This document shows, in pieces, positions 25,027 to 56,585 of a stretch of 64,000 nt of DNA. Under the pieces are notes generated by a model. The model worked only from the letters and a program-made list of their open reading frames with translations, was not told where the DNA came from and did no database searches. A program made the translations under genes and the position numbers. Source of the stretch: Candidatus Hydrothermarchaeota archaeon (GTDB lineage: Archaea > CAYFZR01); the NCBI GenBank assembly GCA_046760505.1, contig JBHIEG010000007.1:1-64000 (forward strand), in the 5' to 3' direction. Position 1 is the first letter of the stretch. The number at the start of each line of letters is the position of its first letter.

Positions 25027-26466
25027 GTGGAAAAAGAACTGGTAGAGAGGGCTTATGAGGAAATTAAAAAGGTTTTAGGGGATAAAAAAGTCAGAAAAGA
25101 TCCTGTGGAGTTGTACTGTTATTCATTTGATGCCTCAATTTATAAGGGTAATCCGGACATTGTGGTAAGGACCTCGAGCGCATATGAGGTCTCAGAGGTT
25201 GTTAAGATCGCTAACAAATACAAGATTCCAGTAGTTCCTAGAGGAGCAGGGACTGGGTTAACTGGAGGTGCATGTGCATTATACGGTGGAATAGTTTTGG
25301 ATCTCATGGCCATGAATCGAATTAAAGAGATAAACATAGATAATCAATACGTTGTGGTTGAGCCAGGAATAATTTACGACGATTTGAATTTAGAGCTAGC
25401 AAGCTATGGTTTTTTCTTTCCTCCTGCTCCGGGCAGCGGAAGCGCCTGCTCGGTAGGAGGCATGGTCGCGAATAACGCTAGCGGGATGCGAGCAGTAAAG
25501 TATGGCACGACAAGAAATTACGTCTTAAAGTTAGAAGTGGTAATGCCTGACGGAAATATAATCACTACGGGATCTCTTTCCTCAAAGAGTTCAGCCGGAT
25601 ATTCTCTAAAAGATCTTTTTGTAGGATCCGAAGGAACTCTTGGCGTTATAACAGAGATTACACTAAGAATAAAACCTCTTCCTAAGCATTCATCAGCACT
25701 GATTGTTTCCTTTAATAATGTAAGAGAGGCAGGAAAGGCAGCATCGGAAATTTTGAAGACCGGAATAGTGCCAGCGGGAATGGAAATCCTGAGCGAGGTG
25801 TGCATTGAAGCGGTTAAAAGGGTTAAAAAGATAGAGTTTCCGGAAGGGAAGGCAATTTTATTCATTGAGACAGATGGAGATGATGTATGCGTCAAAAATG
25901 ATACTGAAAAGATAATTAAGGTCTGTAAAGAAAACAATGCGTTATTTATCCAGCACTCTGAAGATAAAGCAGAAATAAAAAGAATGATGGCTGGCAGGAA
26001 GGCTCTAAGTCCCTCTCTATTCAACTATGATCCGCGCTTAAATCCGGTATTTCTAGCAGAAGATATTGGTGTGCCTATTTCAAGCATCCCTGATGCCATA
26101 GAAGAAATAGAAAAAATAGCATCTGAAGAAGGTTTGGTTATAGCAGTATTTGGACACATAGGTGACGGAAACCTCCATCCAAGGATGTTAATAGATGTTA
26201 GAGATGAAGAAACTTGGAAGAGGGCCGATAGGGCTGCTAGAGAAATATACAAGATAGCCAAAAAATACGGCGGAACGATAGCAGGAGAACACGGTGTTGG
26301 AATTACAAGAGCTCAGTTCTTAAAATTGGAACACGGCGAGAGCTTAGAGATTATGAGAAAAATAAAGAGGGCACTGGATCCCAACAACATAATGAATCCT
26401 GGTTTGCTCTTTGATTATAAAGAAACTCAATTAGATCATTTAAGATACAGGGAGACAGTCTTATGA
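25027..26466 (+). CDS. FAD-linked 2-hydroxyacid dehydrogenase (GlcD/Dld, D-lactate dehydrogenase-like)
   Basis: PRGAGTGLTGG, GSEGTLGVITE, GHIGDGNLHP, GEHGVG and DPNNIMNPG motifs. Confidence 0.88.
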   Translation: MEKELVERAYEEIKKVLGDKKVRKDPVELYCYSFDASIYKGNPDIVVRTSSAYEVSEVVKIANKYKIPVVPRGAGTGLTGGACALYGGIVLDLMAMNRIKEINIDNQYVVVEPGIIYDDLNLELASYGFFFPPAPGSGSACSVGGMVANNASGMRAVKYGTTRNYVLKLEVVMPDGNIITTGSLSSKSSAGYSLKDLFVGSEGTLGVITEITLRIKPLPKHSSALIVSFNNVREAGKAASEILKTGIVPAGMEILSEVCIEAVKRVKKIEFPEGKAILFIETDGDDVCVKNDTEKIIKVCKENNALFIQHSEDKAEIKRMMAGRKALSPSLFNYDPRLNPVFLAEDIGVPISSIPDAIEEIEKIASEEGLVIAVFGHIGDGNLHPRMLIDVRDEETWKRADRAAREIYKIAKKYGGTIAGEHGVGITRAQFLKLEHGESLEIMRKIKRALDPNNIMNPGLLFDYKETQLDHLRYRETVL

Positions 26467-27539
26467 TAGATTACAGAGACAGAATTATAAAATGCGCCCT
26501 TTGCGGGGAATGTAATACACAATGCATAGTTTTAAGAGAGATCGGTTGGTTGTCTAGCGGTCCAAAAGGTAAGATTTTAATGTCCGGACTTGCTTTAGAA
26601 GGTAAATTAGAAAAAGACCTTGATAATTTGTATTTGTGTACGACCTGCGCTAAATGCGAACCGGTTTGTAATGTAGGGTTAGAGATAGTGGATATCATTG
26701 AGCATGCTAGGAGAAAACTGGTTGAAGCAGGGATTACAAAATTACCTCACGAAAAAATGGCAAACAATATCTTCAACTACGGAAATCCCTATGGAGAAAA
26801 AGAAAAGATAAGGTTAGATTCAAAACTTGTGGAAAAAGAAAGCGCTGAGTACGTTTTTTTCCCAGGTTGTACGGCTAAATACAGAGTAAACGAGATAATG
26901 TTATCTTCTATAGATATATTTAATAAAATAGGGTTGGATTATGTGGTGTTTGATGAAAATTACTGTTGTGGAAGTCCACTATTTAGAACGGGTTTTGCGG
27001 GAGGTTTTGAAGAAAGAGCAGGATTACTCGTGGAAAAACTTAATAAAAAAGGAGATAAAGTAATAACTGCATGTCCTGGGTGTTATAGAACCATGAAAAA
27101 TGACTACAGTAAAAAATACGATCTAGAATTAGATATTCAGCATATATCTGTTTTTTTAAATGAAAAGTTGGATGGAATTGACCTTTCTCTCGAGAAAAAT
27201 ATGACAGCCACATACCATGATCCTTGCCACTTAGGAAGGCATATGAATGTCTACGAAGAGCCGAGAAGTCTATTAAAAAAAGTTAAAAACCTAGAACTAG
27301 TTGAAATGACAAATAATAGAGAAAATGCCCTCTGTTGTGGATCAGGTGGCGGTGTACGCGCCGCATTTGATGAACTTGCATATCAGATAGGTAAAAAGAG
27401 GTTAGAAGAGGCTAAAGAAACCAATGCAGAGTCTATAATCTCATCCTGTCCATTTTGCAAGTTGATGTTCGATACTCTCAAAGAAAATGGTTTAAATGCT
27501 TATGATGTTACTGAAGTCATTGCAAAATCCATGAGATAG
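26463..27539 (+). CDS. Fe-S oxidoreductase with CCG domains (GlcF/HdrD-like), probable partner of the dehydrogenase
   Basis: Two CxxCxxCxxxC motifs; FPGC, CCG, TACPGC, YHDPCHLGR, CCGSGGG and SCPFC motifs. Confidence 0.85.
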   Translation: MIDYRDRIIKCALCGECNTQCIVLREIGWLSSGPKGKILMSGLALEGKLEKDLDNLYLCTTCAKCEPVCNVGLEIVDIIEHARRKLVEAGITKLPHEKMANNIFNYGNPYGEKEKIRLDSKLVEKESAEYVFFPGCTAKYRVNEIMLSSIDIFNKIGLDYVVFDENYCCGSPLFRTGFAGGFEERAGLLVEKLNKKGDKVITACPGCYRTMKNDYSKKYDLELDIQHISVFLNEKLDGIDLSLEKNMTATYHDPCHLGRHMNVYEEPRSLLKKVKNLELVEMTNNRENALCCGSGGGVRAAFDELAYQIGKKRLEEAKETNAESIISSCPFCKLMFDTLKENGLNAYDVTEVIAKSMR

Positions 27540-27565
27540 TATGATATGAACGTTGTAATTTAGGG

Positions 27566-28819
27566 ATGAAAATGACAAGAGTGCGTTTGAGATATGGTAA
27601 GGGCTCAATTGAGGTAGACATACCGGAAAAAAATCTAATGGGAATTATTGAACCTAAAGAACTTCCTAGAGCAGTAGATGAAATAAAAGAGATTAATGAA
27701 GCCATCAAAAATCCAATAAACTCAAAAAAGATCTCAGAAATTGTAAAAAATAAAGAAAAAGTTGTAATCATTGTGAGCGACATAACAAGACCAACTCCTT
27801 CATCAAAGATTCTCCCACCGCTCTTGAATGAATTATATTCCTGTGGTATAAAAAATAAAGATGTAACCATTGTTTTCGCATTAGGAATCCACAGGGCGCA
27901 CACGGAGAAAGAGAGAAAAAATTTGGTGGGCGAGGAAATTTATAGAAAAATACGTTGCATCGATCACGACCCTGAAAACTGTATAAACATCGGTAAAACT
28001 TCATATGGAACAAATGTAGACATTTTTAAACCTGTAGCAGAAGCAGACGTAGTTATTTGTACCGGAAACGTAGAATTTCATTATTTTGCAGGATACAGCG
28101 GAGGATCAAAGGCTGTAATGCCGGGCGTAAGTTCTAAGAGAGCAATACAGGAGAATCATCGGATGATGGTTCTGCCAAAGGCTGAGGCTGGAAGGCTTGA
28201 TAGCCCGGTAAGATTGGACATCGACGAGGCTGGAGAAATACTGGGAGTCGATTTCGCCCTAAATGTTGTATTAAACGAAAAAAAAGAGATTGTCAAAGCC
28301 TTTGCTGGAAATCCCACTGATGTGTACAAAGCCGGTGCAAAGTACGTGGACATGATGTATAAAGTTCCAGTTGATCCAGCAGATATAGTAATAACATGTG
28401 CTGGTGGATCTCCCAAAGATATTAATCTCTATCAGGCGCAGAAAGCCTTGGACAATGCCAAAAATGCAGTGAAAGACGGTGGCTCCATCATTCTTGTTGC
28501 AGAGTGTTCGGAAGGTTTTGGAGAGAGCACGTTTGAGGAATGGATAAGGGAGGCAAAGGATCCAGAAGATCTAATAAAAAGATTAGAAGAGAATTTTGTA
28601 TTGGGCGGACACAAAGCAGCGGCTATTGCCTTAGTGATGCGGAAAGCGGAGTGCTATCTGGTATCCAATATGCCTGAAGACCTCGCAAAGGAAGCATTCT
28701 TTATTCCAAAAGGAGATCTTCAGGAAGCACTGGAAGAGGCATTGAGAAAGCAAGAAGATGCAAAGGTACTTGTCATGCCGTATGGTGGATCTACTCTTCC
28801 CTTTCCCAAGACTAAATGA
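27566..28819 (+). CDS. larA: Nickel-pincer-dependent lactate racemase (LarA family)
   Basis: SDITRP, ALGIHR, DHD, HYFAGYSGGSK, ENH and NLYQAQK motifs. Confidence 0.88.
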   Translation: MKMTRVRLRYGKGSIEVDIPEKNLMGIIEPKELPRAVDEIKEINEAIKNPINSKKISEIVKNKEKVVIIVSDITRPTPSSKILPPLLNELYSCGIKNKDVTIVFALGIHRAHTEKERKNLVGEEIYRKIRCIDHDPENCINIGKTSYGTNVDIFKPVAEADVVICTGNVEFHYFAGYSGGSKAVMPGVSSKRAIQENHRMMVLPKAEAGRLDSPVRLDIDEAGEILGVDFALNVVLNEKKEIVKAFAGNPTDVYKAGAKYVDMMYKVPVDPADIVITCAGGSPKDINLYQAQKALDNAKNAVKDGGSIILVAECSEGFGESTFEEWIREAKDPEDLIKRLEENFVLGGHKAAAIALVMRKAECYLVSNMPEDLAKEAFFIPKGDLQEALEEALRKQEDAKVLVMPYGGSTLPFPKTK

Positions 28820-32260: not shown

Positions 32261-32496
32261 ATGTATCCCTTTATCCCTCTTTCTTTGTAGGATTTTGGAG
32301 CCATTAACCTTAGCCTACCTTGATACTTCCATGAGTCTTTTTGTTTCATTACTTTGAATGGTTTAATCATGAGTTGTTCTCTCCCTCTCACCTTCCATTC
32401 TGATATCACCGGAGTAGGAGGTGCCTCCTCCTCGAAGATCTCTTCTACCTCAACTATGTATGTCTTACCCTCGATTTCAATTTTAAACCTTCTCAT
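32257..32496 (-). CDS. Small accessory subunit of the acyl-CoA carboxylase (BCCP-like N-terminus plus two WKxxGRxxLM repeats)
   Basis: 79 aa; overlaps both neighbours; MRRFKIEIEGKTYIVEVEE parallels the BCCP N-terminus. Confidence 0.6.
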   Translation of the reverse strand: MRRFKIEIEGKTYIVEVEEIFEEEAPPTPVISEWKVRGREQLMIKPFKVMKQKDSWKYQGRLRLMAPKSYKERGIKGYI

Positions 32497-33973
32497 TTAC
32501 ATCATCAAGAGGTTCAATAGAAGATATTTTTATTTCTTCTGGGTTTTTTCCCAAATAAGCTGAGATAGCAGCAGTAATCGCAACAATAGTTACACTATCT
32601 TCAATCTTTTTCTTAAGTTTTGGCATTATTCTCTGTTGGTAGAATGAGGTTGAGTAATTTCCCTCCCTGTAATATTGGTCTTCCATAACTAGTTTGTTAA
32701 AGGGTATTGTCGTCTTTATTCCCTCTCCAGTGATTATATATTCGTCCAGTGCCCGTCTCATTCTTTTTATTGCTTCCTTTCTATTTCTACCCCACACAAT
32801 CACCTTAGATATCATCGGATCGAAGTAGGGGAGGATGGTATATCCCTCATAAACAGAACTATCTAGTCTAACTCCAAAACCTCTGGGAACTATGTAAGTA
32901 TCTATCGTTCCGGGAGTGGGAATAAAGTCGTTAAAGGGATCTTCTGCGTATATCCTACACTGTATAGAGTGTCCACGCATCCTTATGTCTTCTTGGTCGC
33001 ACTCGATGCGTTCTCCTGCAGCCATCCTTATTTGCTCCTTGATCAGATCAACTCCGGTTACCATTTCAGTAACGGGATGCTCTACTTGGATGCGTGTATT
33101 GACCTCTAGGAAATAGAAATTTTTATCCTTATCCATCAAAAACTCCACTGTTCCCAAGTTAGTATATCCGGCTTCTTTTGCACCTTTTACAGCCAGTTTC
33201 CCGAGAGTTTCCCTTAGTTCGCCGTTTATGGCAGGGGAGGGAGACTCTTCGATTAACTTTTGATATCTCCTTTGGATGGAGCAGTCTCTTTCTCCTAGAT
33301 GAATTATTTTGCCGTATTTGTCCGCCACAATTTGGAATTCTATGTGCCTAGGTTCTTCGATGTATTTCTCAATGTAAACTTCGGATATTCCGAATGAAGA
33401 CATTCCTTCGCTCCTCGCAGATGCGATGGCTCCCTTTAATTCCTCTTCATTCTTTGCTATCCGAATACCTCTTCCTCCACCGCAACCGACGCATTTAACC
33501 ACAACAGGATAGCCTAGACTCTCTGCTATTTCAAGGGCATCTTCTTCATCTTTTATTGGTTTCTTAGTACCAGGAACAAGGGGGACGCCTGCCTTAGCCA
33601 TTATTCTTCTTGCGCATACCTTGTCTCCCATTTTTTTGAGTACTTTACTAGAAGGTCCTATCAGTACAATCCCTGTTTTCTCACAGTCTCTCGCAAACTC
33701 GTTATTTTCTGCCAAAAACCCGTAACCGGGATGAATCGCATCTGCTCCGCATTTCAGTGCGGTATCGATTATCTTTTCTCCGTTTAAATAACTCTTTACA
33801 GGAGATTCTCCGATACAGTAAGCTTCCTTTGCGTATCTAACGTGTAAAGAATTTTTATCCGGTTCCGAGTAAACTACAACAGGCTTTATGTCCAGTTCTT
33901 TACATGCACCCATTATCCTTATGGCAATTTCTCCTCTGTTTGCAATCAATATCTTGTTGAACAAAAATTTCAC
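32483..33973 (-). CDS. accC: Biotin carboxylase subunit with a C-terminal extension
   Basis: KILIANRGEIA, HPGYGFLAEN, GGGRG, ERDCSIQRR.QK, EVNTRIQVEHPVTE and RIYAEDP motifs. Confidence 0.92.
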   Translation of the reverse strand: MKFLFNKILIANRGEIAIRIMGACKELDIKPVVVYSEPDKNSLHVRYAKEAYCIGESPVKSYLNGEKIIDTALKCGADAIHPGYGFLAENNEFARDCEKTGIVLIGPSSKVLKKMGDKVCARRIMAKAGVPLVPGTKKPIKDEEDALEIAESLGYPVVVKCVGCGGGRGIRIAKNEEELKGAIASARSEGMSSFGISEVYIEKYIEEPRHIEFQIVADKYGKIIHLGERDCSIQRRYQKLIEESPSPAINGELRETLGKLAVKGAKEAGYTNLGTVEFLMDKDKNFYFLEVNTRIQVEHPVTEMVTGVDLIKEQIRMAAGERIECDQEDIRMRGHSIQCRIYAEDPFNDFIPTPGTIDTYIVPRGFGVRLDSSVYEGYTILPYFDPMISKVIVWGRNRKEAIKRMRRALDEYIITGEGIKTTIPFNKLVMEDQYYREGNYSTSFYQQRIMPKLKKKIEDSVTIVAITAAISAYLGKNPEEIKISSIEPLDDVNEKV

Positions 33974-35536
33974 CTACAGTGGTATATTTCCATGTTTTTT
34001 CCATGGTCTATCTTCTCTTTTATTTTCTAATGTTTTCAAAGCATTTATCAGGAGAGGTCTCGTGTTTTTGGGTTCTATTACCGCATCGATGTATCCTCTT
34101 GCCGCTGCTTCGTATGGATTTGCGAATTTCTCCCTGTACTCTTGAATCAATTTTTCTCTCATCGCTTCAGGATCTTCTGCTTTTGCTATTTCTTTCCTCG
34201 CTATGATATTTACTGCTCCTTCTGGCCCCATCACAGCAATCTCAGCAGTGGGCCAGGCATAAACTAAATCCGCGCGCAAATCCCTGCTGCACATAGCCAG
34301 ATAAGTGCCTCCGTATGATTTTCTCGTAATTATTGTTATCTTTGGAACTGTAGCCTCTGAATAAGCAAAGAGAAGTTTTGCTCCATGTCTAATAATTCCA
34401 CCGTATTCCTGAGCCGTTCCTGGTAGAAATCCAGGCACATCAACGAATGTTACCAGAGGTATGTTAAAAGCATCACAGAACCTTATGAATCTCGCAGCTT
34501 TGTCAGATGAGTTTACATCTAGACTTCCCGCGTACACTTTAGGCTGATTCGCTATTATACCCACGGTTTTGCCATCAAGCCTCGCAAAGCCTATTATAAT
34601 GTTCTTAGCAAAATTCGGTTTGAGTTCAAACAGTTTACCATTGTCCACTATCATGCGTATTACGTCGTACATGTCATATGCCTTCTTTGGATCCACTGGT
34701 ACTACATAATTTAGTTCTTCTTCTCTTCTGTTTGGGTCGTCTCCTGTATTAACTACAGGAGGATCTTCTAAGTTATTGGAAGGTAAATAGCTTAATAGCT
34801 CTTTGATCAATTTTATACATTCTTCTTCATTTTTTGCTGAGAGATCTGCGTTTCCGCTAACCTGAGTATGTACATCTGCTCCGCCTAACTGCTCGAACGT
34901 CACTTCTTCCCCTGTTACCTCTTTTATAACGTCCGGTCCCGTTATGAACATGTAACTGGTTTTCTCCACCATGATGGTGAAATCGGAGATAGCAGGAGAA
35001 TACACTGCTCCCCCAGCGCAAGGACCCATTATTGCCGATATTTGAGGAATTACTCCTGAATATATTGTGTTCCTAAAGAATATTTCACCATAACCAGCCA
35101 AACTGTCCACTCCTTCTTGAATCCTTGCTCCTCCTGAATCATTTAAACCTATAAAGGGTGCACCAACCTTGGCAGCCATATCCATTATCTTGCAGATTTT
35201 CTTTGAAAACATCTCGCTTAACGTACCACCTATTACCGTAAAATCCTGCGCGAAAACGTATACAAGTCTGCCATCTATGGTTCCGTATCCTGTAACCACA
35301 CCGTCTCCGGGATACTTTCTTTTTTCCATGCCAAAGTGAGTGCACCTGTGCTCAACGAACATATCTAACTCCACGAAACTGCCTGGATCTAACAGCAAAT
35401 CAAGTCTTTCCCGAGCAGTGAGTTTACCCTTTTTGTGTTGGGCATCTATTTTTTCCTTTCCTCCTCCTAATTTTGCCTTTTCTTCTCTTTCTTTAAGTTC
35501 GGCAATTTTTTTGTCAGATTCTGACCTAGCAGACAT
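33974..35536 (-). CDS. pccB: Acyl-CoA carboxyltransferase (propionyl-CoA carboxylase beta / methylmalonyl-CoA decarboxylase alpha type)
   Basis: [38 protein letters not shown] and KKHGNIPL motifs. Confidence 0.9.
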
Positions 35537-37664: not shown

Positions 37665-37779
37665 CCAGATTTCATGAATTACTGTAAGAAGAGAAGAAAT
37701 TGCAGAATAAGTAAGTAATAATTTAGAAATACAAGATTTCTTCATGCTTATATGAATGAGTTTTGAGAGGGAGCGGAAA

Positions 37780-38181
37780 ATGGAAGAAAAAATAAGAATC
37801 CTGATAGCGAAACCCGGCCTGGATGGCCACGACAGAGGTGCGAAGGTAATTGCGCGAGCATTAAGAGATGCTGGGTTCGAGGTAATTTATACAGGGGTGA
37901 GACAAACTCCTGAACAAATCGTTGAAACAGCAATTCAAGAAGACGTAGACGCTATTGGTCTTAGCATACTCTCTGGTGCACATACCTATTTATTTCCAAA
38001 GATAATGGAGCTTTTAAGAAAAAGAGGCGTTGATGACATAGTTGTTTTCGGAGGTGGAATAATACCTGAGGAGGATATACCTGCGCTCAAAAAGGCTGGA
38101 ATAAAAGAGATATTTGGTCCAGGCACCTCAACCCAAACCGTCATTGAATTTGTAAAAAATACCGTCAAAAAGAGGTCCTGA
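37780..38181 (+). CDS. Methylmalonyl-CoA mutase, cobalamin-binding small subunit
   Basis: [10 protein letters not shown] (DxHxxG), SILSGAH and GGGIIP motifs. Confidence 0.92.
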
Positions 38182-38197
38182 ATTTTTTGGTGAAAGG

Positions 38198-39148
38198 ATG
38201 GAACTGGTTGACAGGTTATTAAAAGGAGATGAAAGAGCCGTAGCAAGATTGATAACGTTACTGGAAAACAGATCTTCAATAGCAAGAGAAGCCATAAGAC
38301 TTCTCTATCCATACACCGGGAACGCATACGTGATCGGAATAACAGGAGCACCTGGAGTCGGTAAAAGTACTTTAATCGATAGAATAGCCAGAGAATACAG
38401 AAAAGAGGACAAAAAAATAGGAATATTGGTCATAGATCCCAACAGTCCGTTTACCGGGGGTGCAATATTCGGTGATAGGATAAGAATGATGGGATTAAGC
38501 ACAGACAAGGATGTTTTCATAAGGAGTATGGGTTCTAGAAGCAAAAAAGGAGGACTAGCACCAGCGATACACGATGCAATAAGAGTTTTAGATGCATTTG
38601 GAAAACAAATAATCCTTGTAGAAACCATGGGTATCGGTCAGGCAGAAGTTGATATTGTAAAGGTAGCAGATACAGCCATAGTTGTCTCTGTTCCCGGGTT
38701 AGGCAATAGCATCCAGACCATTAAGGCAGGAGTGATGGAGATCGCAGACATATTTGTCGTAAACAAGGCTGATCACCCATTCGCAGATAGGGTTGTATAT
38801 GAGATTGAATCAATGCTTGATCTAGATCTAAGTGCATCAAAAGAAGAGTGGAGACCTCCGGTGATAAAAACTTCAGCAGAAAAAGGGGAGGGAATTTTAG
38901 ATCTGATTAAAGCAATAGAGAACCACAGGACGTATCTACATGAATCGAACAGAATTGATTACAAAAGAAGAAAAAGAATTGAAAACGAATTGATAGAAGT
39001 AATTAGAGATATGTGCACAGAAAATTTATTGAAAAAAATGGAAGAAAATAAAATATTCGAAAAATTTATTGATGAAATGGTCAATGAAAAGAAAGATCCT
39101 TATTTTATTGCTGAAAAATTCATTAGGGAGTGGATCAGAATTGATTGA
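38198..39148 (+). CDS. meaB: Mutase-associated GTPase MeaB/ArgK
   Basis: [30 protein letters not shown] and VNKAD motifs. Confidence 0.92.
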
Positions 39149-40817
39149 AAAAGAATACCTGGAAAAAATAAAGGATGAAGAAGAGAAGTGGGAAAACACA
39201 ACCTTAAAGAAAGTACTGGAAAAATTCCCGGAAAGAAAAAAGGAATTTCTTTCTGAATCAAGAATATCCATAAAGAGAGTGTATACACCGAAAGATATCG
39301 AAGATACAGATTACATCAATGATATAGGTCTTCCTGGAGAGTATCCGTATACAAGAGGAATTCAACCCACGATGTACAGGGGAAAAGTCTGGACAATGAG
39401 GCAGTACTCAGGTTTTGGTACTGCAGAAGAAACAAATGAGAGGTTTAAATATCTTCTAGAGCAGGGACAGACAGGTCTCAGTATAGCCTTTGATCTTCCT
39501 ACCCAAATAGGTCTTGACTCTGACCATCCCCTTGCTTATGGAGAAATAGGCAGAACTGGGGTCGCCATAGATTCCCTTAAAGACATGGAAATACTGTTTG
39601 AAGGAATCCCCCTCGATAAGGTGAGTACTTCAATGACCATCAACGCACCTGCATGCGTACTACTGGCCATGTACATCGTTCTTGCAGAGAAACAGGGCAT
39701 CCCTCTGGACAAACTAAACGGAACAATTCAGAATGATATCTTAAAGGAATATATAGCAAGGAATACCTACATATTCGCCCCTTTACCATCCATGAAACTG
39801 ATAACCGACATATTTGAATTCTGTACAAAAAATATGCCTAGATGGAATTTCATAAGCGTGAGCGGCTACCACATAAGAGAAGCAGGAGCAACAGCGGTTC
39901 AAGAACTGGCATTTACCTTTGCAAATGCCATGACTTATATTGATTATGCGATAAAGCGCGGTTTAGATGTAGATGAATTTGCGGCTCGGATATCATTCTT
40001 CTTCAGTTCTTCAAGTGATTTATTTGAAGAAGTGGCAAAGTTTAGGGCAGCTAGAAGAATATGGGCTAAAATAATGAGAAATAAGTTTAAAGCAAAAAAT
40101 CCAAGATCCTGGCTCTTAAGATTTCATGTTCAGACAGCAGGCAATACTCTAACTGCTCAACAGCCAGAAAATAACATAGTTAGAGTAACACTACAAGCGT
40201 TAGCAGCGGTTTTGGGAGGTGCCCAGTCTTTACACACAAATTCTATGGATGAGGCATACTGCTTGCCAAGCGAACAAGCCGTAAGAACCGCACTGAGGAC
40301 CCAGCAAATTATAGCCTATGAAAGCGGTGTAACCAATACGGTAGATCCTCTGGGAGGGTCTTACTACATAGAAGCACTGACAAATGAAATTGAAAAACAG
40401 GTATGGGAATACCTAGAAAAGCTAGAGGAAATAGGAGTCGTGAACGCTATAGAAAGTGGCTTTATACAATCAGAGATTCAAAGCAGCGCGTACAAATACA
40501 CAAAAGAGATTGAAAGCAAGGAAAGAATAGTGGTAGGCGTCAACAGCTACCAGATAGAAGAAGAAGAGAAATTGGAACTCTTAAGACCTAATCCTGCTGT
40601 AGAGGCAATGCAACTGGAGAGGTTAAGGAAGGTTAAGGAAGAAAGAGATGGTAAAAAAGTAGAAGAAGCTCTAGAAAAACTCAGAGAAACAGCAAAAAAG
40701 GAAGAAAATGTTATGCCTCCAATAATAGAAGCTGTTAGATCTTACGCAACAATTGGTGAGATTTGTGATGTTCTGAGAGAGGTATACGGAGAATATCAGC
40801 CAATTACAGTACTGTAG
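39141..40817 (+). CDS. Methylmalonyl-CoA mutase, substrate-binding large subunit
   Basis: [15 protein letters not shown] (Tyr), [11 protein letters not shown] (Arg), GYHIREAG and SLHTNS.DEA motifs; the Tyr/Arg pair indicates methylmalonyl- rather than isobutyryl-CoA specificity; start set at TTG 39141. Confidence 0.92.
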
Positions 40818-40825
40818 GTAATGAA

Positions 40826-41362: not shown

Positions 41363-41366
41363 TAAA

Positions 41367-41875: not shown

Positions 41876-42706
41876 ATGGCAATTACTAGAGAGGATGTCA
41901 TAGATTCGGTAGAAAAAATATTGAGGGAAGCCGTAATTAAGCTTCCTGAAGACGTTATATTTTGTTTGAAATCCTCGCTGAAAAAGGAACGTAATGAAAG
42001 GGCAAGAGCCACCCTCAACACGATTCTAGAGAATGTAAGGGTAGCAGCGGAAAGAAACATACCAATGTGCCAAGATACAGGAATACCTATATTCTTCGTC
42101 GATCTTGGAAGAGATTTGAACCTAGACTTCGATCTCAAGGAGGCAATAACGGAAGGAGTTAGAAAGGCTACCAAGGAGATACCTCTAAGACCCAATGCGG
42201 TACATCCGCTTACCAGGGAAAACTCAGGAGACAATACAGGTCCTGGAATGCCTGATATCACCTTAGATCTCGTGGAAGGAAGTTCAATGAAGATAACTGT
42301 AGCGCCTAAGGGCGCGGGCTCAGAAAACATGAGTGCTTTAAGAATGCTAAGTCCGGGTCAGGCAAAAGAGGTTGATCGCATAATCGTAGAGACGGTTAAA
42401 AATGCTGGAGGAAGACCTTGTCCACCAGTCATCGTTGGAGTTGGAATTGGAGGATCATTCGATGAATCTGCTAAACTTGCAAAGAAGGCCATACTTAGGG
42501 ATCTTAGAGAGAAGCCAAGTAAGATGGAAAAGGAAGTGCTTGAAAAAATAAATTCTTTGGGAATCGGTCCGATGGGTCTTGGTGGGAATACCACTGCATT
42601 GAAGGTAAACATAGAATTCGCCCACTGTCACACCGCATCTCTTCCCTTGGCGATAAACATTCAATGCTGGGCTGATAGAAAGGCGAGCGTTGTACTGGGT
42701 GGTTGA
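41876..42706 (+). CDS. Fumarate hydratase class I, alpha subunit
   Basis: PMCQDTG, PLRPNAV, KGAGSEN, CPP and CHTASLP...CWA.R motifs. Confidence 0.9.
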
Positions 42707-42707
42707 G

Positions 42708-43283
42708 ATGGAATATACACTAAATACACCTTTAAGCTTGGAGGATATTTCTCAACTTAAGGCAGGGGACATAGTTTATTTAAACGGCATAGTGCTTACC
42801 GCTAGAGATGAAGCCCATGAAAGAATCTTGAAATACAGAAAAGAAAGTAAGAAACTGCCCTTTGAATTAAATGGCTCCGCTATATACCATTGCGGACCAC
42901 TGATGAAGAAGGAAAATGAAAAATGGAAGGTAGTAGCAGCTGGTCCGACTACTAGCGTGAGGATGAATAAAACTACGCCAGAATTACTCAAGTATTTTGA
43001 AGTTAGAGCATTGATAGGAAAAGGCGGGATGAGCGAGATCACCGAGCATTTAAAGGGAAAATGCGTTTACCTTGCATATACAGGAGGATGTGCTGCCCTC
43101 GCAGCGGATAGAATAAAGGAGACAAAAGATGTATTCTGGCTAGATCTTGGGATGCCAGAGGCGGTATGGGTATTCGAAGTGCAGAACTTCGGACCTTTAA
43201 TAGTAGGGAGCGACGTAGAGGGAAATGATTTATTCAGAGATGTAATGGAAAATGCCACGAAAAAAATGAAAAAACTATTTTAG
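42708..43283 (+). CDS. Fumarate hydratase class I, beta subunit
   Basis: TARDEAH, YHCGP, GPTTS.RM, IGKGGM and DLGMPEA motifs. Confidence 0.9.
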   Translation: MEYTLNTPLSLEDISQLKAGDIVYLNGIVLTARDEAHERILKYRKESKKLPFELNGSAIYHCGPLMKKENEKWKVVAAGPTTSVRMNKTTPELLKYFEVRALIGKGGMSEITEHLKGKCVYLAYTGGCAALAADRIKETKDVFWLDLGMPEAVWVFEVQNFGPLIVGSDVEGNDLFRDVMENATKKMKKLF

Positions 43284-43295: not shown

Positions 43296-44981
43296 TTGGA
43301 GGTCCATGAGACAGATGTTCTAATCATAGGAGGTGGCGGTGCTGGCTGCAGGGCCGCCATAGAAGCATCTGAAAAAAATGTTGACGTAATAGTGATGGTG
43401 AAAAGTTTAGTCGGAAAGAGCGGATGCACTCCCATGGCTGAAGGCGGCTATAACGCGGCTTTGGGAAATATACACAAAGAAGATTCCTGGGAAGTTCATT
43501 TTAGAGATACGGTAATAGGGGGAGCCTACTTAAATAATCAAAAACTGGTAGAAATATTGGTTAAGGAGGCTCCAGAGAGGATATACGATCTCGAGAATTA
43601 CGGCGCAGTCTTTGATAGAACAGAGGAAGGATATATAGCACAAAGACCTTTTGGACATCAAACCTATATCAGGACCTGTTATGCCAGCGATAGAACCGGT
43701 CATGAAATGATGATCACTCTTTTAAACGAGATTAGGAGGAGAGACATCACTCTGATAGAAGACCATATGGCTATTGAGCTTCTAAAATACGATAGCAGAG
43801 TTACCGGTGCCATAGCACTCGACATGATAAGCGGAGATCTTGCATTGATAAAGTCTAAAGCCACCATACTTGCTACGGGTGGAGGATCAAGAATATATAA
43901 GATCTCTACGAACTCTCAGCAAACCTGCGGAGATGGCTATGCAATGGCTTATAGAGCGGGAGCAGAGTTAATAGACATGGAACAGGTTCAATTTCACCCT
44001 ACAGGAATGGTATTTCCTGAATCTGCGAAGGGAATTCTGGTAACCGAAGCAGTAAGGGGAGAAGGAGGCATTTTACTAAACAAAGATGGAGAGAGGTTCA
44101 TGTTAAGATATTCCCCTGAGAAAAAAGAACTCGCAGGAAGAGACGTTGTTGCAAGGGCAATAGCCACTGAAATATTAGAGGGAAGAGGTACCAAAGAGGG
44201 TGGCGTTTATCTCGATGTATCTCATCTCGATGAGGAGGTTATTGAAAAGAGACTGGAAACGATGTTTGAGCAGTTCATGTTATTTGGTGTAGACATAAGA
44301 AAGGAGCCAATGCAAGTGGCTCCTACCGCACATCACTTTATGGGAGGAGTTAGAATAGATGAGCAGTGCAGAACCTCTCTTCCCGGCCTATATGCTGCAG
44401 GAGAGACTGCAGGAGGCGTTCATGGAGGTAATCGGCTCGGAGGGAATGCTTTAGCGGATACGCAGGTATTCGGTAAGAGAGCAGGAGAATATGCTGCTGA
44501 ATACGCTAAAAAGACTGGTAAGCCCAAGATAGAGAGACAATTTGTTGAAAAAGTTGAGAAAGGGGTTTACTCGCTATACAACGGAGAGGGAGTTTCTCCA
44601 ATAGAAGCAAAAAAACGTTTGACAGAGATTATGTGGGACAAGGTAGGGATATTTAGAGAAGAAAAAGCCATGAGTGAGGCTCTAAAAGAATTAGAACGAA
44701 TGAAAAAGGAAGATTTGCAAAATTTAAGAGTTAATGAGGGAAAAACTTATAATTTAGAACTGATTGAGGCGCTTCAATTAAGAAATATGGTTACCGTAGC
44801 AGAGATGGTTACCAGATCAGCGCTCTATAGAAAGGAAAGCAGGGGCGCTCATTGCAGACTTGACTTTAAGGAAAAAGATGACAAAAACTGGCTTGTAAAC
44901 GTAATAGTAAAACAAAAAAACGGTAAGATGACGATTTACACAGAGCCAGTTGTTTTTACGATTCTAAGGCCAGGTGGTTGA
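43296..44981 (+). CDS. tfrA: Thiol:fumarate reductase flavoprotein subunit A
   Basis: GGGGAG; SGCTPMAEGG lacks the covalent-FAD His, as in TfrA; QFHPTG, TEAVRGEG, HHFMGG, GGNRLGGN and ESRGAH motifs. Confidence 0.85.
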   Translation: MEVHETDVLIIGGGGAGCRAAIEASEKNVDVIVMVKSLVGKSGCTPMAEGGYNAALGNIHKEDSWEVHFRDTVIGGAYLNNQKLVEILVKEAPERIYDLENYGAVFDRTEEGYIAQRPFGHQTYIRTCYASDRTGHEMMITLLNEIRRRDITLIEDHMAIELLKYDSRVTGAIALDMISGDLALIKSKATILATGGGSRIYKISTNSQQTCGDGYAMAYRAGAELIDMEQVQFHPTGMVFPESAKGILVTEAVRGEGGILLNKDGERFMLRYSPEKKELAGRDVVARAIATEILEGRGTKEGGVYLDVSHLDEEVIEKRLETMFEQFMLFGVDIRKEPMQVAPTAHHFMGGVRIDEQCRTSLPGLYAAGETAGGVHGGNRLGGNALADTQVFGKRAGEYAAEYAKKTGKPKIERQFVEKVEKGVYSLYNGEGVSPIEAKKRLTEIMWDKVGIFREEKAMSEALKELERMKKEDLQNLRVNEGKTYNLELIEALQLRNMVTVAEMVTRSALYRKESRGAHCRLDFKEKDDKNWLVNVIVKQKNGKMTIYTEPVVFTILRPGG

Positions 44982-46509
44982 TTTGGATCTCAAGGTTAGG
45001 GTACTTAGATACGATCCTTTAATGGATGATGAGCCCAGATTTGTCGAATATTCCGTTCCGTATCAGCAGTACATGACTGTTTTAGACGTTTTACAATATA
45101 TTTATGAAAACTACGATTCAACTCTCTCTTTCAAATGGGGGTGCAGAGCAGGTCAGTGTGGATCGTGCACCGTGGTGTATAACGAAAAACCCTCTTTGGC
45201 ATGCAGAACAAAGATCGATCCTGAGCAAGATGTTGAAATAAGCCCTCTACCATATTTTCCGATTGTAAAAGATCTTGTTGTAAATACGGAGAAGATACGT
45301 GAGAAATTGATAAGGGCTTTACCCTTCCTAGAATCAATGAAAAAGATAGAAAGACCTTACAAAGTAAAACAGGAAGAAATAGAATCCATAGTAGATCTCA
45401 GGAAATGCATAGAATGTTATTCATGCGTAGCAACGTGTCCAGTAATAGATCAGGCATGGCAAGATTATGGAAGTCCTTTTGTTATGAGAGAAGTTGGCAG
45501 GTGGGCGTTCGATAAAAGAGATTCATTAGACAGGATAAAAATAGCCATGTTAAACGGGCTCTATAATTGTACCACGTGCGGAAGTTGCAAAGAAGTCTGC
45601 TACAAAAACATTGATATTCCAGAGAAAGCAATAGAAAAACTAAGAAATCTCGCGGTCATAGAGGGATTGGCGCCATTGCCGCCTCATAAGACGTTGATAG
45701 CAAGCATACAAAATTACTGGAATCCATGGCTTCAGCCAAGGGCAGCGAGAGCAAAGTGGGCTAAGAAGATGAAATTGAAAGATGAAGGTGACACTCTATT
45801 TTTCGCGGGATGTTCTCCATCTTTGCTGTTAAAAAATCTTCCCTTATCGAGTATGGAAATACTGAATTCGTTGAACAAAGACGTTGCGTATTTGGGAAGG
45901 AACGAAAGGTGCTGCGGCAGTCCATTGTTAAGACTAGGAGATTTAGAACTTTTTGATGAAATAGGAAGATCGAACATAGAGGAATTCAAAAAAGCAGGAG
46001 CAGAAAGAATCATTGTTACGTGCGCAGGCTGTTACAAAGCCCTTAAAGTCGATTATCCAAATTTCTTCGGTGATTTCGACTTTGAAGTAAAGCACATTTC
46101 CGAAGTAATCGCTGACGAGATAAGAGAAGGCAATGTTGATTTTAAAGAAAAATACGATATGAAAGTTACATATCATGATCCCTGTCATTTAGGCAGGGCA
46201 GGAGGGGTATATGATGCTCCAAGAGAAATTATAAAAGCCATTCCTGGTTTAGAATTGATTGAAATGAACAGGAAAAGGGAAATAAGTGCTTGCTGTGGAA
46301 GCGGAGGAGGTCTAAAGACTTATAAACCAGATCTTGCCATGTCCATAGGCGGTAAAAGAGTCGAAATGGCGAAGAATACTGGAGCAGAGTATATACTGAC
46401 GTGTTGTCCTTGGTGCGAGCAAAATCTTGATGATAGCGCTAAAAAGGCGAATATAGACATGAAAACCATAGACTTGGTTGATATCGTAGTAGAGGTACTT
46501 GAGGTGTAA
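44974..46509 (+). CDS. tfrB: Thiol:fumarate reductase subunit B (SdhB-like 2Fe-2S and 2x4Fe-4S fused to two CCG domains)
   Basis: CRAGQCGSC...LAC, CIECYSC..TCP, CTTCGSC..VC, FAGC, CCG, YHDPCHLGR and CCGSGGG motifs. Confidence 0.85.
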   Translation: MVDLDLKVRVLRYDPLMDDEPRFVEYSVPYQQYMTVLDVLQYIYENYDSTLSFKWGCRAGQCGSCTVVYNEKPSLACRTKIDPEQDVEISPLPYFPIVKDLVVNTEKIREKLIRALPFLESMKKIERPYKVKQEEIESIVDLRKCIECYSCVATCPVIDQAWQDYGSPFVMREVGRWAFDKRDSLDRIKIAMLNGLYNCTTCGSCKEVCYKNIDIPEKAIEKLRNLAVIEGLAPLPPHKTLIASIQNYWNPWLQPRAARAKWAKKMKLKDEGDTLFFAGCSPSLLLKNLPLSSMEILNSLNKDVAYLGRNERCCGSPLLRLGDLELFDEIGRSNIEEFKKAGAERIIVTCAGCYKALKVDYPNFFGDFDFEVKHISEVIADEIREGNVDFKEKYDMKVTYHDPCHLGRAGGVYDAPREIIKAIPGLELIEMNRKREISACCGSGGGLKTYKPDLAMSIGGKRVEMAKNTGAEYILTCCPWCEQNLDDSAKKANIDMKTIDLVDIVVEVLEV

Positions 46510-52320: not shown

Positions 52321-52341
52321 TTTTGTTCTTTATTTTCTCCT

Positions 52342-54690: not shown

Positions 54691-54701
54691 GTGCACGAAA
54701 A

Positions 54702-56585
54702 ATGCTAGATTGCACAACCTGCAGGCTTTGTGCCGTCAAATGCCCAACAGAAATCAATCTAGATGAGATTATCAAAAGATACAGATATTTAAATGAAATC
54801 AGGACTCCTCACGGGGGAGTATTCCATATACTAGGGAAAATTTTAATCAGAGTGGATATTTCAGATTGGCTTAAAGAAGATGAACTGGATATTGGCAGAG
54901 ACGATTTATACTATTTTCCAGGATGTTTGCCGATATTCGATTTGGTTCTGGATAGAGATAGAAGCTATTCGGGAATTGCCCATGCAGGAATAAAGGTTTT
55001 GAATAAGTTGGGGATATCACCGAAAATAATCTACGGCTGCTGCGGGCACGACCTCTTATATTCAGGGAATTTAGATGAGTTTGAAATCAATAGGATAAAC
55101 CTTAAAGGAAAAGTGGAAGGTAAGAAGATAATAACTGGATGTGCAGAGTGTTATCACATTTTAAAAAATGAATATCAAGCGGATGTGGAGCATTTCTCTC
55201 AATTCATTTCCAAAAATTTAAACAAACTTGATTTAAGTAATATCGATACAGAAAAATTGAAAACCACCTATCATGATCCCTGTAGATTAGGAAGATACAA
55301 TTCAATTTACAATGAACCTAGAGAACTCCTTGAAAAAATCACTTCCTTTAGTGAGATGTCAAGAAACAGAGAAGAAACAATATGCTGTGGAGTTTCTTCG
55401 TGGCTAAACTGTGATAACCTATCTAGGGAATTGAGAGAAGAAAAAATAAAAGAAGCAATTGAAACCGGATCAGATTCTTTGGTCACGAGTTGTCCGAAGT
55501 GTATAGTTCATTTAGATTGTTTATACGAAGAGAAACTCGGTGATTTGGATTTAAAGCGTTTAAATATCGTTGATTTACAAGAAATACTCGCTCATTCGCT
55601 TGGAATCTATGACCTCCAATCAGATGAGAAATTTTATGAAATAAAAAAGAGAAAGAGCACACCAATAAAGTCCGTTGAAATAAAGAAAGATCCCTTGAGA
55701 TATATAGACAGAGATCTATCCAATTTAGCATACAGGTGTACCACATGTTATGCATGTGAGACTGCATGTCCGATGGAATATAAGCCTGTTCACATGATGG
55801 AAGACTTCAGAAAATTTCTTGTTTCTCAAAATCTCAATCCTGAAAGGCACAATGAAATTTATAACAATATTTTAGAAACAGGAAACGTTTTTGGTGAAAA
55901 AGAGGAAATATTTGATGAAAAAGTAGATCATGACGTGGTTTATTTCCCGGGATGTGTCGCTAGTTTTCGTGCTAGGAAGATAGTCGATTCATGCAGGGAA
56001 TTGATGGACAGAATAGGAGTTAATTATACCATCCCTAAAGGGACGATATGCTGTGGGAGCATAGCGTTTAGAACGGGATTCAATACCAGACCAATCGTGG
56101 AGAAGAATATGCAAGTGTTAAACGGAAAGAAGATTGTTTGTTCTTGTTCGGGTTGTTACGCTACGTTTAAAAAGGACTATGGATTAAACGCTATTCACTT
56201 CATCGATTTATTGCTGGATAACAAGAATAAACTGAAATTTAAAAAATCGGGAGTGAAAATAGCCTACCATGATCCGTGTCATCTAGGAAGGGAGTTTCAG
56301 TACTTCGACCCTCCGAGAGAACTGCTAAAATTAATTCCAGAACTGGAATTGGTAGAATTTCCCCATAGCAGAGAGAATTCTCTATGCTGTGGAGGTGGAG
56401 GCGGGGTTAGATCTGCTTTTCCGGAGTTATCTGCAATGATAGCAAAAAAAAGGATGGAAGAAATCGAAAATGAAAGTGTGGATGCTGTAGTAACCGCCTG
56501 CCCGTTCTGTGAGATAAATCTAGGAACCGTTACCGATAAGAAGGTATACGACATATCCCAATTCTTACTGATACATCTAAAATGA
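54702..56585 (+). CDS. Internally duplicated HdrD-like Fe-S/CCG protein
   Basis: Two modules, each CTTCxxCxxxCP + YFPGC + CCG + YHDPC.LGR + CCG + CPxC. Confidence 0.82.
   Translation: MLDCTTCRLCAVKCPTEINLDEIIKRYRYLNEIRTPHGGVFHILGKILIRVDISDWLKEDELDIGRDDLYYFPGCLPIFDLVLDRDRSYSGIAHAGIKVLNKLGISPKIIYGCCGHDLLYSGNLDEFEINRINLKGKVEGKKIITGCAECYHILKNEYQADVEHFSQFISKNLNKLDLSNIDTEKLKTTYHDPCRLGRYNSIYNEPRELLEKITSFSEMSRNREETICCGVSSWLNCDNLSRELREEKIKEAIETGSDSLVTSCPKCIVHLDCLYEEKLGDLDLKRLNIVDLQEILAHSLGIYDLQSDEKFYEIKKRKSTPIKSVEIKKDPLRYIDRDLSNLAYRCTTCYACETACPMEYKPVHMMEDFRKFLVSQNLNPERHNEIYNNILETGNVFGEKEEIFDEKVDHDVVYFPGCVASFRARKIVDSCRELMDRIGVNYTIPKGTICCGSIAFRTGFNTRPIVEKNMQVLNGKKIVCSCSGCYATFKKDYGLNAIHFIDLLLDNKNKLKFKKSGVKIAYHDPCHLGREFQYFDPPRELLKLIPELELVEFPHSRENSLCCGGGGGVRSAFPELSAMIAKKRMEEIENESVDAVVTACPFCEINLGTVTDKKVYDISQFLLIHLK

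Follow-up and report, generated by a model that had tools for sequence, protein, structure and literature searches.

In methanogens, the soluble thiol-type fumarate reductase TfrAB supplies succinate for 2-oxoglutarate synthesis, and pairs of GlcD-type and Hdr-type proteins in Methanosarcina acetivorans have been proposed as heterodisulfide-linked dehydrogenases (both according to the accessible part of PMC8764690). In bacteria, the methylmalonyl-CoA pathway of Propionibacterium and of Syntrophobacter and Pelotomaculum combines mutase, MeaB, epimerase, a 12S/PccB-like carboxyltransferase, SucCD and fumarase with a quinone-linked Sdh/Frd. Here, we analyzed a locus at positions 25027-56585 of a 64,000-nucleotide stretch of DNA (hereafter the window; positions 1 to 64,000 of contig JBHIEG010000007.1, assembly GCA_046760505.1) from a Candidatus Hydrothermarchaeota archaeon, in which genes of both kinds of system stand side by side. 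We consider, with a probability of about 0.5, that this locus is a native, densely packed hub of C3/C4 metabolism, in which a methanogen-style reductive branch from phosphoenolpyruvate (PEP) through succinyl-CoA to 2-oxoglutarate would be joined with ATP-driven propionyl-CoA assimilation, and in which both redox steps would be carried out by flavoprotein/CCG enzymes.

The host genome (G000; 2.17 Mb in 142 contigs, the window being contig C7) is rated 100% complete with 5.67% contamination, and its sister genome G001 is likewise 100% complete by marker count. G000 resembles the Methanothermobacter-type incomplete reductive tricarboxylic acid (TCA) cycle in its TfrA and TfrB equivalogs, the fused SdhB-like/double-CCG architecture of TfrB, the lack of a membrane anchor, and the presence of PEP carboxylase (PEPC), class I fumarase, SucCD, a putative KOR-type 2-oxoacid:ferredoxin oxidoreductase (OFOR), CODH/ACS and Mvh-HdrABC; as in that type, there is no citrate synthase (PF00285), which was found in neither G000 nor G001. 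Unlike the Methanothermobacter type, G000 yielded no mcrA, ComA or malate dehydrogenase (MDH) in the searches made. With the bacterial methylmalonyl-CoA pathway, G000 shares all the enzymes listed above except that the soluble Tfr stands in place of the quinone-linked Sdh/Frd, again with no MDH found. It also differs from the Propionibacterium type, since it has an ATP-grasp biotin carboxylase instead of an intact transcarboxylase 5S subunit or a Na+ pump.

Genes were called from a listing of open reading frames (ORFs), Pfam matches and NCBIfam scores compared with curated cut-offs, where a score below its cut-off, as for the mmdA carboxyltransferase, GlcD and HdrA2 models, gives a family-level call only (Table 1). 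Every gene named at this locus by a preliminary description of the same DNA was recovered, with the subfamily label "LarA" in need of correction, and the two divergent operons it had proposed are real: with sucC reaching 37573 on the minus strand and mcmS beginning at 37756 on the plus strand, they start 182 bp apart. The minus operon runs from 37573 down to 28812 and comprises sucC, sucD, the genes for carboxyltransferase, biotin carboxylase and biotin carrier, and three split IOR-like OFOR genes. The plus operon (37756-48285) holds 11 genes, mcmS, meaB, mcmL, cobO, epimerase, fumA, fumB, tfrA, tfrB, ferredoxin and a short AOR-family gene, with gaps of at most 16 bp except for 98 bp before fumA; from tfrA through the AOR gene, the gaps do not exceed 12 bp. 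The split OFOR, the ferredoxin and short AOR genes, and a broken pycB/oadA-like gene with a second biotin carrier had previously gone unnoticed. From these family assignments, the carboxylase (BC-CT-BCCP), the epimerase and the B12 mutase with MeaB and CobO are predicted to link propionyl-CoA to succinyl-CoA, SucCD to link succinyl-CoA to succinate, and class I fumarase together with the soluble TfrAB to link malate, fumarate and succinate.

In the proposed hub, carbon would flow reductively, as in autotrophic methanogens, from PEP to oxaloacetate by the archaeal PEPC and then through malate, fumarate, succinate and succinyl-CoA to 2-oxoglutarate, and carboxylated propionyl-CoA would enter the same succinyl-CoA pool. 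The upstream operon would replace MDH: the GlcD-type dehydrogenase and its CCG partner would interconvert oxaloacetate and D-malate, and the Mar2-type racemase would interconvert D- and L-malate, a proposal that we hold to be slightly more probable than its denial. Both redox steps would thus depend on a flavoprotein with an HdrB/D-type Fe-S partner, and their reducing power would come from the Hdr network (HdrABC-MvhADG, HdrA-MvhD/HdrDD and the HdrDE-like pair), either via a thiol/disulfide couple or by direct electron transfer. Since citrate synthase is missing while PEPC and CODH/ACS are present, an anabolic role of Tfr is the simplest reading.

Both subunits of TfrAB pass their equivalog cut-offs, and the next-best Sdh/Frd models reach at most 611 bits with TfrA, compared with 806.4 bits for NF004900. 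The cluster cysteines of TfrB are invariant in a 12-sequence alignment, and both of its five-Cys CCG motifs are complete, with all 10 Cys kept. An SdhC/D-type anchor (Sdh_cyt, PF01127) was found in neither G000 nor G001; a NarI-like gene lies 3 kb downstream of tfrAB. The equivalog scores, the fused SdhB-like/CCG architecture and the missing anchor bear out the earlier assignment of TfrAB to the Tfr type, and as tested by family score and architecture, the enzyme does not group with anchored, quinone-linked Sdh. Within the species collection, it is closest to the Methanomassiliicoccales enzymes (50-53% identity for TfrB and 53-56% for TfrA), and in three loci of this order, TfrAB adjoins an aminotransferase, not fumarase or mutase.

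The flavin site of TfrA bears on the direction of the reaction. Alignment to SdhA 7d6v and motif comparison with relatives place GKSGCTPMAEGG where SdhA and FrdA carry the His residue for covalent FAD attachment (the site at TfrA residues 40-51, window 43413-43448). Two types were seen at this site among TfrA and the relatives compared (L002-L006, L045, L060): TfrA of G000 shares Gly-Cys-Thr with the TfrA of a Methanomicrobiales MAG, whereas homologs from Methanomassiliicoccales and from a Nitrososphaeria metagenome-assembled genome have Ala-His-Thr. Without the covalent FAD bond, Escherichia coli FrdA reportedly still reduces fumarate but no longer oxidizes succinate. The lack of the His residue in TfrA therefore argues for an enzyme that would only reduce fumarate, and against propionate oxidation.

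Comparison with G001 is consistent with this direction. Searches at the class and phylum levels returned only G000 and its congener G001, the two genomes of the phylum in the collection. At the DNA level, G001 is 76-84% identical to the window over nearly the full length, including both flanks of a variable block, with two exceptions. The first is at 21.8-23.7 kb (the broken pycB-like gene and biotin carrier 1; no match at 21769-23714), and for the second, at 43.29-50.69 kb (tfrA, tfrB and the ferredoxin, AOR-like, hdrD-like and hdrE-like genes), G001 has a 3.9-kb block instead, of which no ortholog was found in G000. The genes of this block are for HdrC-like and HdrB-like proteins, a 2Fe-2S/4Fe-4S protein and an FAD_binding_2 flavoprotein of 542 aa. 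The flavoprotein is FrdA/NadB-like, lacks the C-terminal Succ_DH_flav_C domain and has an 88-aa N-terminal extension; it carries Asn at the FAD-His position and keeps the HPTG, RG-G, HY-GGI and NRL-GNSL active-site motifs. Since the FAD His is missing from TfrA and from the G001 flavoprotein alike, fumarase is directly followed in both species by a fumarate reductase that is probably one-way and has a partner of HdrB type. This suggests that the function at the tfrAB position is conserved while the enzyme has been swapped between species, and the G001 set may represent a second, undescribed kind of CCG-linked fumarate reductase.

The junctions of the variable block recur in per-run assemblies. 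Four runs of one study, labelled hydrothermal vent metagenome, contain the stretch, with no RNA run among those listed for 42001-51500; positions 41001-52500 are spanned by single per-run contigs in three of them, and pieces from the fourth bridge both block borders. Since the four runs belong to one study and are possibly the source samples, they speak for reproducible assembly rather than giving independent support. With G001 syntenic and the junctions spanned in the per-run assemblies, the contig is native and not chimeric, which removes the concern about a chimera raised in the preliminary description. A metagenome scan with FumB returned two loci, L125 and a 1.3-kb fragment (L126); L125 carries the G001 module at 100% identity and is thus from the same species, not an independent occurrence.

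The arrangement itself is rare. In contrast to methanogen Tfr, tfrAB of G000 shares an operon with the genes for mutase, epimerase and fumarase, and methylmalonyl-CoA mutase or epimerase was found near TfrB in none of 30 full-length TfrB loci. FumB was near TfrB in a single locus (L045, a Nitrososphaeria metagenome-assembled genome (MAG), with the order fumB-tfrA-tfrB), and a SucC-like gene lay 8.5 kb off in one; for five of the 30 loci, the flanks extended no further than 1.5 kb, and some of the contigs were short, which makes these misses weak evidence. Synteny of mutase, epimerase, fumarase and tfrAB across archaeal MAGs, which the preliminary description had put forward as a check, is hence not conserved. 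The layout is largely confined to this assembly, since even the sister species lacks tfrAB here.

The upstream operon was originally described as a lactate module with LarA. The racemase passes the LarAH6 model (NF052593) and falls short of the LarA lactate-racemase model (NF033504, 358.8 bits; cut-off 460), and it matches Mar2 of Thermoanaerobacterium thermosaccharolyticum (6d6z) over the full length with 443 bits, compared with 198-241 bits for LarA chains. It keeps the catalytic and NPN residues R74, H108, H171, K181, H197 and K294 and the substrate residues Y172, Q293 and K351, as read from the alignment to 6d6z, whose roles in cofactor binding, catalysis and substrate recognition are given in the accessible part of PMC7583248, and LarC is present in G000. 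The enzyme is therefore Mar2-like, not LarA-like. Ldh_1_N and malic enzyme were not found in G000 or G001, and Ldh_2 and Mqo were not found in G000, with the 2-Hacid_dh family outside these searches; the MDH gap noticed earlier in the window thus holds genome-wide for the four families searched. Since fumarase and PEPC are present and no MDH or malic enzyme was found in these families, we read glcD-ccg-mar as the link between oxaloacetate and L-malate via D-malate, and the supposed lactate module is more likely a malate/oxaloacetate bypass. The three genes are kept in G001 at 74-89% amino acid identity, and both C-x31-35-CC-x34-36-CxxC motifs of the CCG partner are complete. The pair can be compared by description with MA4410 and MA4630-MA4631 of M. 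acetivorans, themselves uncharacterized, which the accessible part of PMC8764690 proposes as heterodisulfide-dependent dehydrogenases; the G000 pair differs in being operonic with a racemase and in a host without CoM/mcr markers.

The neighborhoods of racemase homologs (83 loci, 50-61% identity) lend some support to a malate role. Malic enzyme adjoins the homolog in seven of 15 loci sampled with Pfam, a sample that covered the 49 nearest of 92 neighboring ORFs. Four of the 83 loci have SucCD within 7 kb, and one has fumarase. In three Methanosarcina loci (L127, L140, L167), the Mar2-like racemase adjoins a second LarA-family paralog, and in all four loci, these three and L202 (a Methanosarcinales MAG), a sodium:solute symporter stands beside it.

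Several points weigh against the proposed hub, most of them against its malate bypass. The racemase differs from Mar2 by K173 to F and by GSK for GHK (H180 to S), a pattern common to G001 and Methanocellales homologs, and it is paired with a GlcD-type dehydrogenase and CCG protein, not with malic enzyme. None of the 83 loci has a CCG partner beside a LarAH6-like racemase, and only one has a weak GlcD-like neighbor (24% identity); among the loci compared, the glcD-ccg-mar pairing is unique to this genus and so lacks outside support. Among solved chains, the dehydrogenase scores higher with D-lactate/glycolate enzymes (glycolate oxidase 298, mouse LDHD 273 and LctD 256 bits) than with D2HGDH (166 bits). 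GlcD-type enzymes normally oxidize their substrates, and to our knowledge, an oxaloacetate-reducing role of such an enzyme would be unprecedented. D-malate could instead come from a D-2-hydroxyacid dehydrogenase of the 2-Hacid_dh family, which lay outside our searches. Beyond the bypass, the KOR on contig C27 of G000 passes its cut-off with the alpha subunit (PRK08659, 499 bits; cut-off 411), while the best match of the beta subunit, KorB, stays below it (242 bits; cut-off 364). ComA, the CoM marker searched for, was not found in G000 (weak evidence, since the control search also missed M. acetivorans), which gives no support to CoM as the electron donor of Tfr. Finally, a purely anabolic flux hardly explains the 11-gene operon, the strain-variable tfrAB-hdrDE block, or the presence of Mvh-Hdr in a cell without mcr.

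Some of these points would suit a lactate-utilization module that merely adjoins the C4 genes, in which the racemase would convert L-lactate to D-lactate for oxidation to pyruvate. The nearest solved relatives of the dehydrogenase act on glycolate or D-lactate, the racemase departs from Mar2 at two substrate positions, and G000 has two more GlcD-like/HdrD-like pairs; pairs of GlcD and CCG proteins are commonly annotated as D-lactate dehydrogenases. However, the racemase passes LarAH6 and not LarA, scores 443 bits with Mar2 and at most 241 bits with lactate racemases, and has malic enzyme beside its homologs in nearly half of the sampled loci, and the genome combines fumarase and PEPC with no MDH or malic enzyme found. 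We consider the lactate module possible but doubtful.

How electrons reach the two flavoproteins is a separate question. The full set of 10 CCG Cys is kept in TfrB, the GlcD partner, the HdrD-like protein, both halves of the double HdrD and the HdrB-like protein of G001. According to the accessible part of bioRxiv 10.64898/2026.08.18.745454, the non-cubane clusters of HDR use ten Cys and are catalytic in HdrB and TfrB, while EMO has lost one Cys, a His fills its CoM site, and its domain only transfers electrons. The retention of ten Cys thus fits thiol chemistry at this locus, although it is not proof. The preliminary description had wired the pathway to a thiol/heterodisulfide pool. A disulfide-reducing apparatus is present, given the canonical HdrA-HdrC-HdrB-MvhD-MvhG-MvhA locus elsewhere in G000, but CoM/CoB as the thiol is not supported, with neither ComA nor mcrA found in G000; OAD_beta, malic enzyme and Ldh_1_N, which it had likewise named for a genome-wide search, were not found there either.

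Alternatively, there may be no free thiol. The CCG domains would then act only as electron-transfer modules toward a membrane cytochrome b and a lipid carrier, as in EMO, GlpC and SdhE, and TfrAB with HdrDE would form a split quinol:fumarate reductase. A NarI-like gene is adjacent, ComA, DsrC and mcrA were not found in G000, and in the accessible part of the EMO preprint, CCG/NCB domains serve solely to transfer electrons. Elsewhere in G000, a GlcD-like/HdrD-like set lies beside cytochrome b6/petD-like genes (C23, L215:2218-5998), and in another such set, the FAD domain is fused to an NrfD membrane domain and adjoins a four-cluster ferredoxin (C10, L216:47-5611). Since membrane proteins of cytochrome b6-like or NrfD-like type thus accompany the GlcD-like/HdrD-like pairs of these loci, some lipid carrier probably exists in the host, despite the missing menaquinone markers: MqnA/D and DsrC were not found in G000 or G001, and no MenD exceeded its cut-off. 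These missing markers speak against the quinol reading, as do the ten retained cluster Cys, in contrast to EMO, which has lost one and blocks the CoM site with a His, and the thiol-dependent catalysis of methanogen TfrB (accessible parts of PMC8764690 and bioRxiv 10.64898/2026.08.18.745454). On balance, wiring without a thiol is conceivable yet somewhat unlikely.

The HdrDE-like pair named in the preliminary description is present, but its tie to the fumarate step is unproven, since it resembles a short-AOR/BPL_N/HdrDE module of Thermodesulfobacteriota. Like Methanosarcina HdrDE and EMO, it combines an HdrD-like protein with two 4Fe-4S and two CCG motifs and a NarI/HdrE-like membrane protein; the pair retains all 10 Cys, along with several hydrophobic segments and His residues. 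Unlike Methanosarcina HdrDE, it passes no NCBIfam equivalog, and its nearest contexts are Thermodesulfobacteriota and delta-proteobacterial loci (L074, L079, L081, L094, L096), where a ferredoxin, a short AOR (~410-475 aa), a BPL_N-like protein, membrane cytochromes and an HdrD-like protein lie in a row and adjoin an NMT1-type ABC transporter. In L094, mutase, epimerase and aldehyde dehydrogenase genes lie just upstream of the AOR/BPL_N/HdrD row. The short AOR belongs to a family of ~425-aa AFOR_N proteins, mostly from Thermodesulfobacteriota, with the AOR fold over its whole length (Atlas). In the window, the parts of the module lie at 46512-48285, 48310-50414 and 56607-57719 (BPL_N-like). 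The hdrDE-like pair may therefore belong to a bacterial-type AOR/BPL_N module rather than to Tfr, and the ferredoxin/short-AOR/BPL_N/HdrDE module may be sulfur-related. A G000 paralog follows three DsrE-like genes on C26 (L217:1779-3307).

The same genes could serve a catabolic, propionate- or succinate-forming fumarate respiration similar to malate dismutation. Fumarate from PEP/oxaloacetate would be the terminal oxidant, TfrAB would oxidize a thiol pair, the bifurcating Mvh-HdrABC and the HdrDE-like membrane pair would re-reduce the disulfide and conserve energy, and succinate would become propionyl-CoA through SucCD, mutase, epimerase and a reversed carboxylase. tfrAB shares a predicted operon with the mutase, epimerase and fumarase genes, and the strain-variable block that contains it also contains hdrDE; Mvh-HdrABC is present with no mcrA to make its disulfide, and a cell lacking mcr needs some disulfide-forming reaction. 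The missing FAD His in TfrA points to fumarate reduction, and the two family III CoA-transferases on contig C1 of G000 would suit such a pathway, as would the CCG sites, all of which keep the 10 Cys of catalytic HDR by the criterion in the accessible part of bioRxiv 10.64898/2026.08.18.745454. Anaerobic eukaryotes form propionate by fumarate reduction followed by mutase, epimerase and propionyl-CoA carboxylase (PMC7828693, accessible part), although their malate dismutation uses a rhodoquinone-linked complex II where the G000 locus has a soluble Tfr. The genes also hold evidence to the contrary: the Na+-pumping subunit OAD_beta was found in neither genome, the 5S-type gene is broken and absent from G001, the biotin carboxylase abuts the carboxyltransferase in the usual layout of a carboxylating enzyme, G001 lacks tfrAB and hdrDE at this locus, and the ComA search found no thiol-cofactor marker. 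We therefore regard fumarate respiration as unlikely. The preliminary description had taken the biotin carboxylase without a Na+ pump as favoring carboxylation; the absence of OAD_beta is borne out, but it does not settle the direction, since ATP-type carboxylases run in reverse in malate dismutation. There, the reversed propionyl-CoA carboxylase step yields ATP.

A bolder version, to which we give little credence, extends the thiol to the whole C4 branch. A thiol/disulfide relay would replace NAD(P)H and quinones, with a D-malate:disulfide oxidoreductase and racemase in place of MDH and TfrAB in place of quinol:fumarate reductase; CO2-derived fumarate would regenerate the disulfide for Mvh-HdrABC bifurcation and for the HdrDE-like pair, and succinate would leave as propionate by the reversed carboxylase, amounting to a "heterodisulfide respiration" without methane. 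Syntrophic-type oxidation of propionate or propionyl-CoA, from carboxylation through succinate, fumarate, malate and oxaloacetate to pyruvate and acetyl-CoA with electrons passed to the disulfide pool, is very improbable: the ATP-dependent carboxylase does point to succinyl-CoA, an OFOR lies in its operon, and hydrogenases and Hdr are available for electron disposal, but oxidizing succinate with a disulfide of about -140 mV is strongly uphill, the FAD His that FrdA is said to need for this step is missing from both TfrA and the G001 flavoprotein, quinone markers for reverse electron transport were not found, and the oxaloacetate decarboxylase-like gene is broken.

The rest of the genome fits the proposed hub in a broader picture of the host as a methanogen-like H2/CO2 archaeon that would use the acetyl-CoA pathway without the methane step. 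G000 encodes an archaeal PEPC (TIGR02751 equivalog, 644 bits), CdhC and CdhD of CODH/ACS (C6, L232), RACo, three HMPTM-type radical SAM proteins and two NiFe hydrogenase large subunits; bacterial PEPC and ATP-dependent PEP carboxykinase were not found. An HdrA-HdrC-HdrB-MvhD-MvhG-MvhA locus lies with HypA on C8 (L214:3008-9079), and a second HdrA-MvhD fusion lies with a polyferredoxin on C4 (L213:3919-7600). Further OFORs comprise two of POR type (C39, C2), the KOR/2-oxoacid type on C27 and one IOR. The TfrB query gave 15 matches in G000, mostly to the HdrD-like (CCG) half.

Other observations stand apart from the carbon route. A GTP-dependent PEP carboxykinase gene on the 2.5-kb contig C106 of G000 (L210) is in pieces with an internal stop, and may be a broken gene or come from a contaminant contig. 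The split IOR-like OFOR, kept in G001 at 76-90% amino acid identity, has the same orientation as the carboxylase and SucCD genes, and 2-oxobutyrate, 2-oxoglutarate or pyruvate can be guessed as its substrate. For the broken pycB/oadA-like gene (~21901-23173), sequencing error and gene decay are both conceivable. A DUF4139 gene lies downstream, between the HdrD/NarI-like pair and the HdrA-MvhD fusion in listing order. The dicarboxylate/4-hydroxybutyrate and 3-hydroxypropionate/4-hydroxybutyrate cycles were provisionally rejected, since no HpaB/HpaB_N match (E<=1e-15) was found in 86 of the 94 ORFs of 465-535 aa, the range scanned; the other eight comprise six in the window and two annotated before.

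Table 1 Features of the locus and of the G001 replacement module (bits, with NCBIfam cut-offs in parentheses)
Feature	Position	Strand	Basis and remarks
pycB/oadA-like (5S-type) carboxyltransferase, two frame changes	21901..23173	+	three-frame reading; PRK09282 405 bits, last 274 aa; absent in G001
Biotin carboxyl carrier protein copy 1, 160 aa	23185..23667	+	Pfam Biotin_lipoyl; absent in G001
GlcD-family FAD-linked D-2-hydroxyacid dehydrogenase	25027..26466	+	Pfam FAD_binding_4 and FAD-oxidase_C; GlcD model 425 (568), family level
HdrD-like Fe-S partner, Fer4 and two CCG	26463..27539	+	Pfam CCG, Fer4_8; 4-bp overlap with dehydrogenase gene
LarA-superfamily racemase, LarAH6 (Mar2, malate racemase) family	27566..28819	+	NF052593 589 (500)
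Split divergent IOR-like 2-oxoacid:ferredoxin oxidoreductase, 429 + 306 + 231 aa	28812..31738	-	weak IOR_alpha/IOR_beta, TPP_enzyme_C and POR matches
Biotin carboxyl carrier protein copy 2, 126 aa	31880..32260	-	Pfam Biotin_lipoyl
Biotin carboxylase (ATP-grasp)	32483..33973	-	TIGR00514 accC 650 (626.5); zero gap to carboxyltransferase gene
Acyl-CoA carboxyltransferase, PccB/MmdA/12S-like	33974..35536	-	Pfam Carboxyl_trans 708; TIGR01117 (mmdA subfamily) 927 (999)
Succinate-CoA ligase	SucD 35557-36495, SucC 36437-37573	-	SucD TIGR01019 443 (353); SucC NF001913 476 (370)
mcmS (B12-binding), meaB, mcmL, cobO, methylmalonyl-CoA epimerase	37756..41777	+	five NCBIfam models above cut-off: mutase small subunit 187 (57), MeaB 348 (241), mutase large subunit 805 (304; TIGR00641/TIGR00640 pair), CobO 188 (168), epimerase TIGR03081 167 (115)
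Class I Fe-S fumarase FumA and FumB	41876..43283	+	NF004885 379 (276); NF004708 318 (269)
TfrA fumarate reductase flavoprotein	43296..44981	+	NF004900 806.4 (718); alignment to SdhA 7d6v
TfrB, SdhB-like 2Fe-2S + 4Fe-4S half fused to two CCG	44974..46509	+	NF004898 458.5 (385); Fer2_3, Fer4, 2x CCG
Ferredoxin 114 aa and short AOR-family protein 475 aa	46512..48285	+	Pfam Fer4, AFOR_N; 2- and 1-bp gaps from tfrB
HdrD-like 430 aa and NarI/HdrE-like membrane protein 271 aa	48310..50414	-	Pfam CCG, Fer4_8, Nitrate_red_gam
HdrA-MvhD fusion 782 aa and double HdrD-like 627 aa	52342..56585	+	HdrA2 NF040770 903 (1100), family level; FlpD domain; four complete CCG motifs
BPL_N-like and F420-dependent LLM-class oxidoreductase	56607..58687	+	Pfam BPL_N; TIGR03560 271 (231)
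G001 replacement module	L038:3861-7530 (G001 C67) and L125:10766-14432		occupies exact tfrAB position

All parts of the locus belong to known families, and it is the arrangement, the host and the proposed bypass that are new. Our literature searches returned no report joining "TfrAB" with "methylmalonyl-CoA" and none joining "thiol fumarate reductase" with "propionate", where the usual colon spelling may hide matches; a search combining the methylmalonyl-CoA pathway, archaea, heterodisulfide reductase and fumarate reductase returned bacterial or community studies only, as judged from the listing alone. We are aware of no description of malate dehydrogenase being bypassed through a racemase, although no search aimed at this was made.

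Many non-methanogenic archaea carry Hdr and Mvh genes, and we know of no reaction that makes their disulfide substrate. At the present locus, a fumarate reductase of thiol type, and possibly also a malate/oxaloacetate enzyme of that type, stands directly in the central carbon metabolism of such an Hdr/Mvh-bearing non-methanogen, which offers concrete recombinant targets for finding the thiol. The racemase bypass, if true, would be a new way to dispense with malate dehydrogenase and would supply the physiological role that the discoverers of malate racemases had left open. Should the ordinary, anabolic reading be true, the locus would be a clean example of methanogen-style anabolism surviving outside the methanogens.

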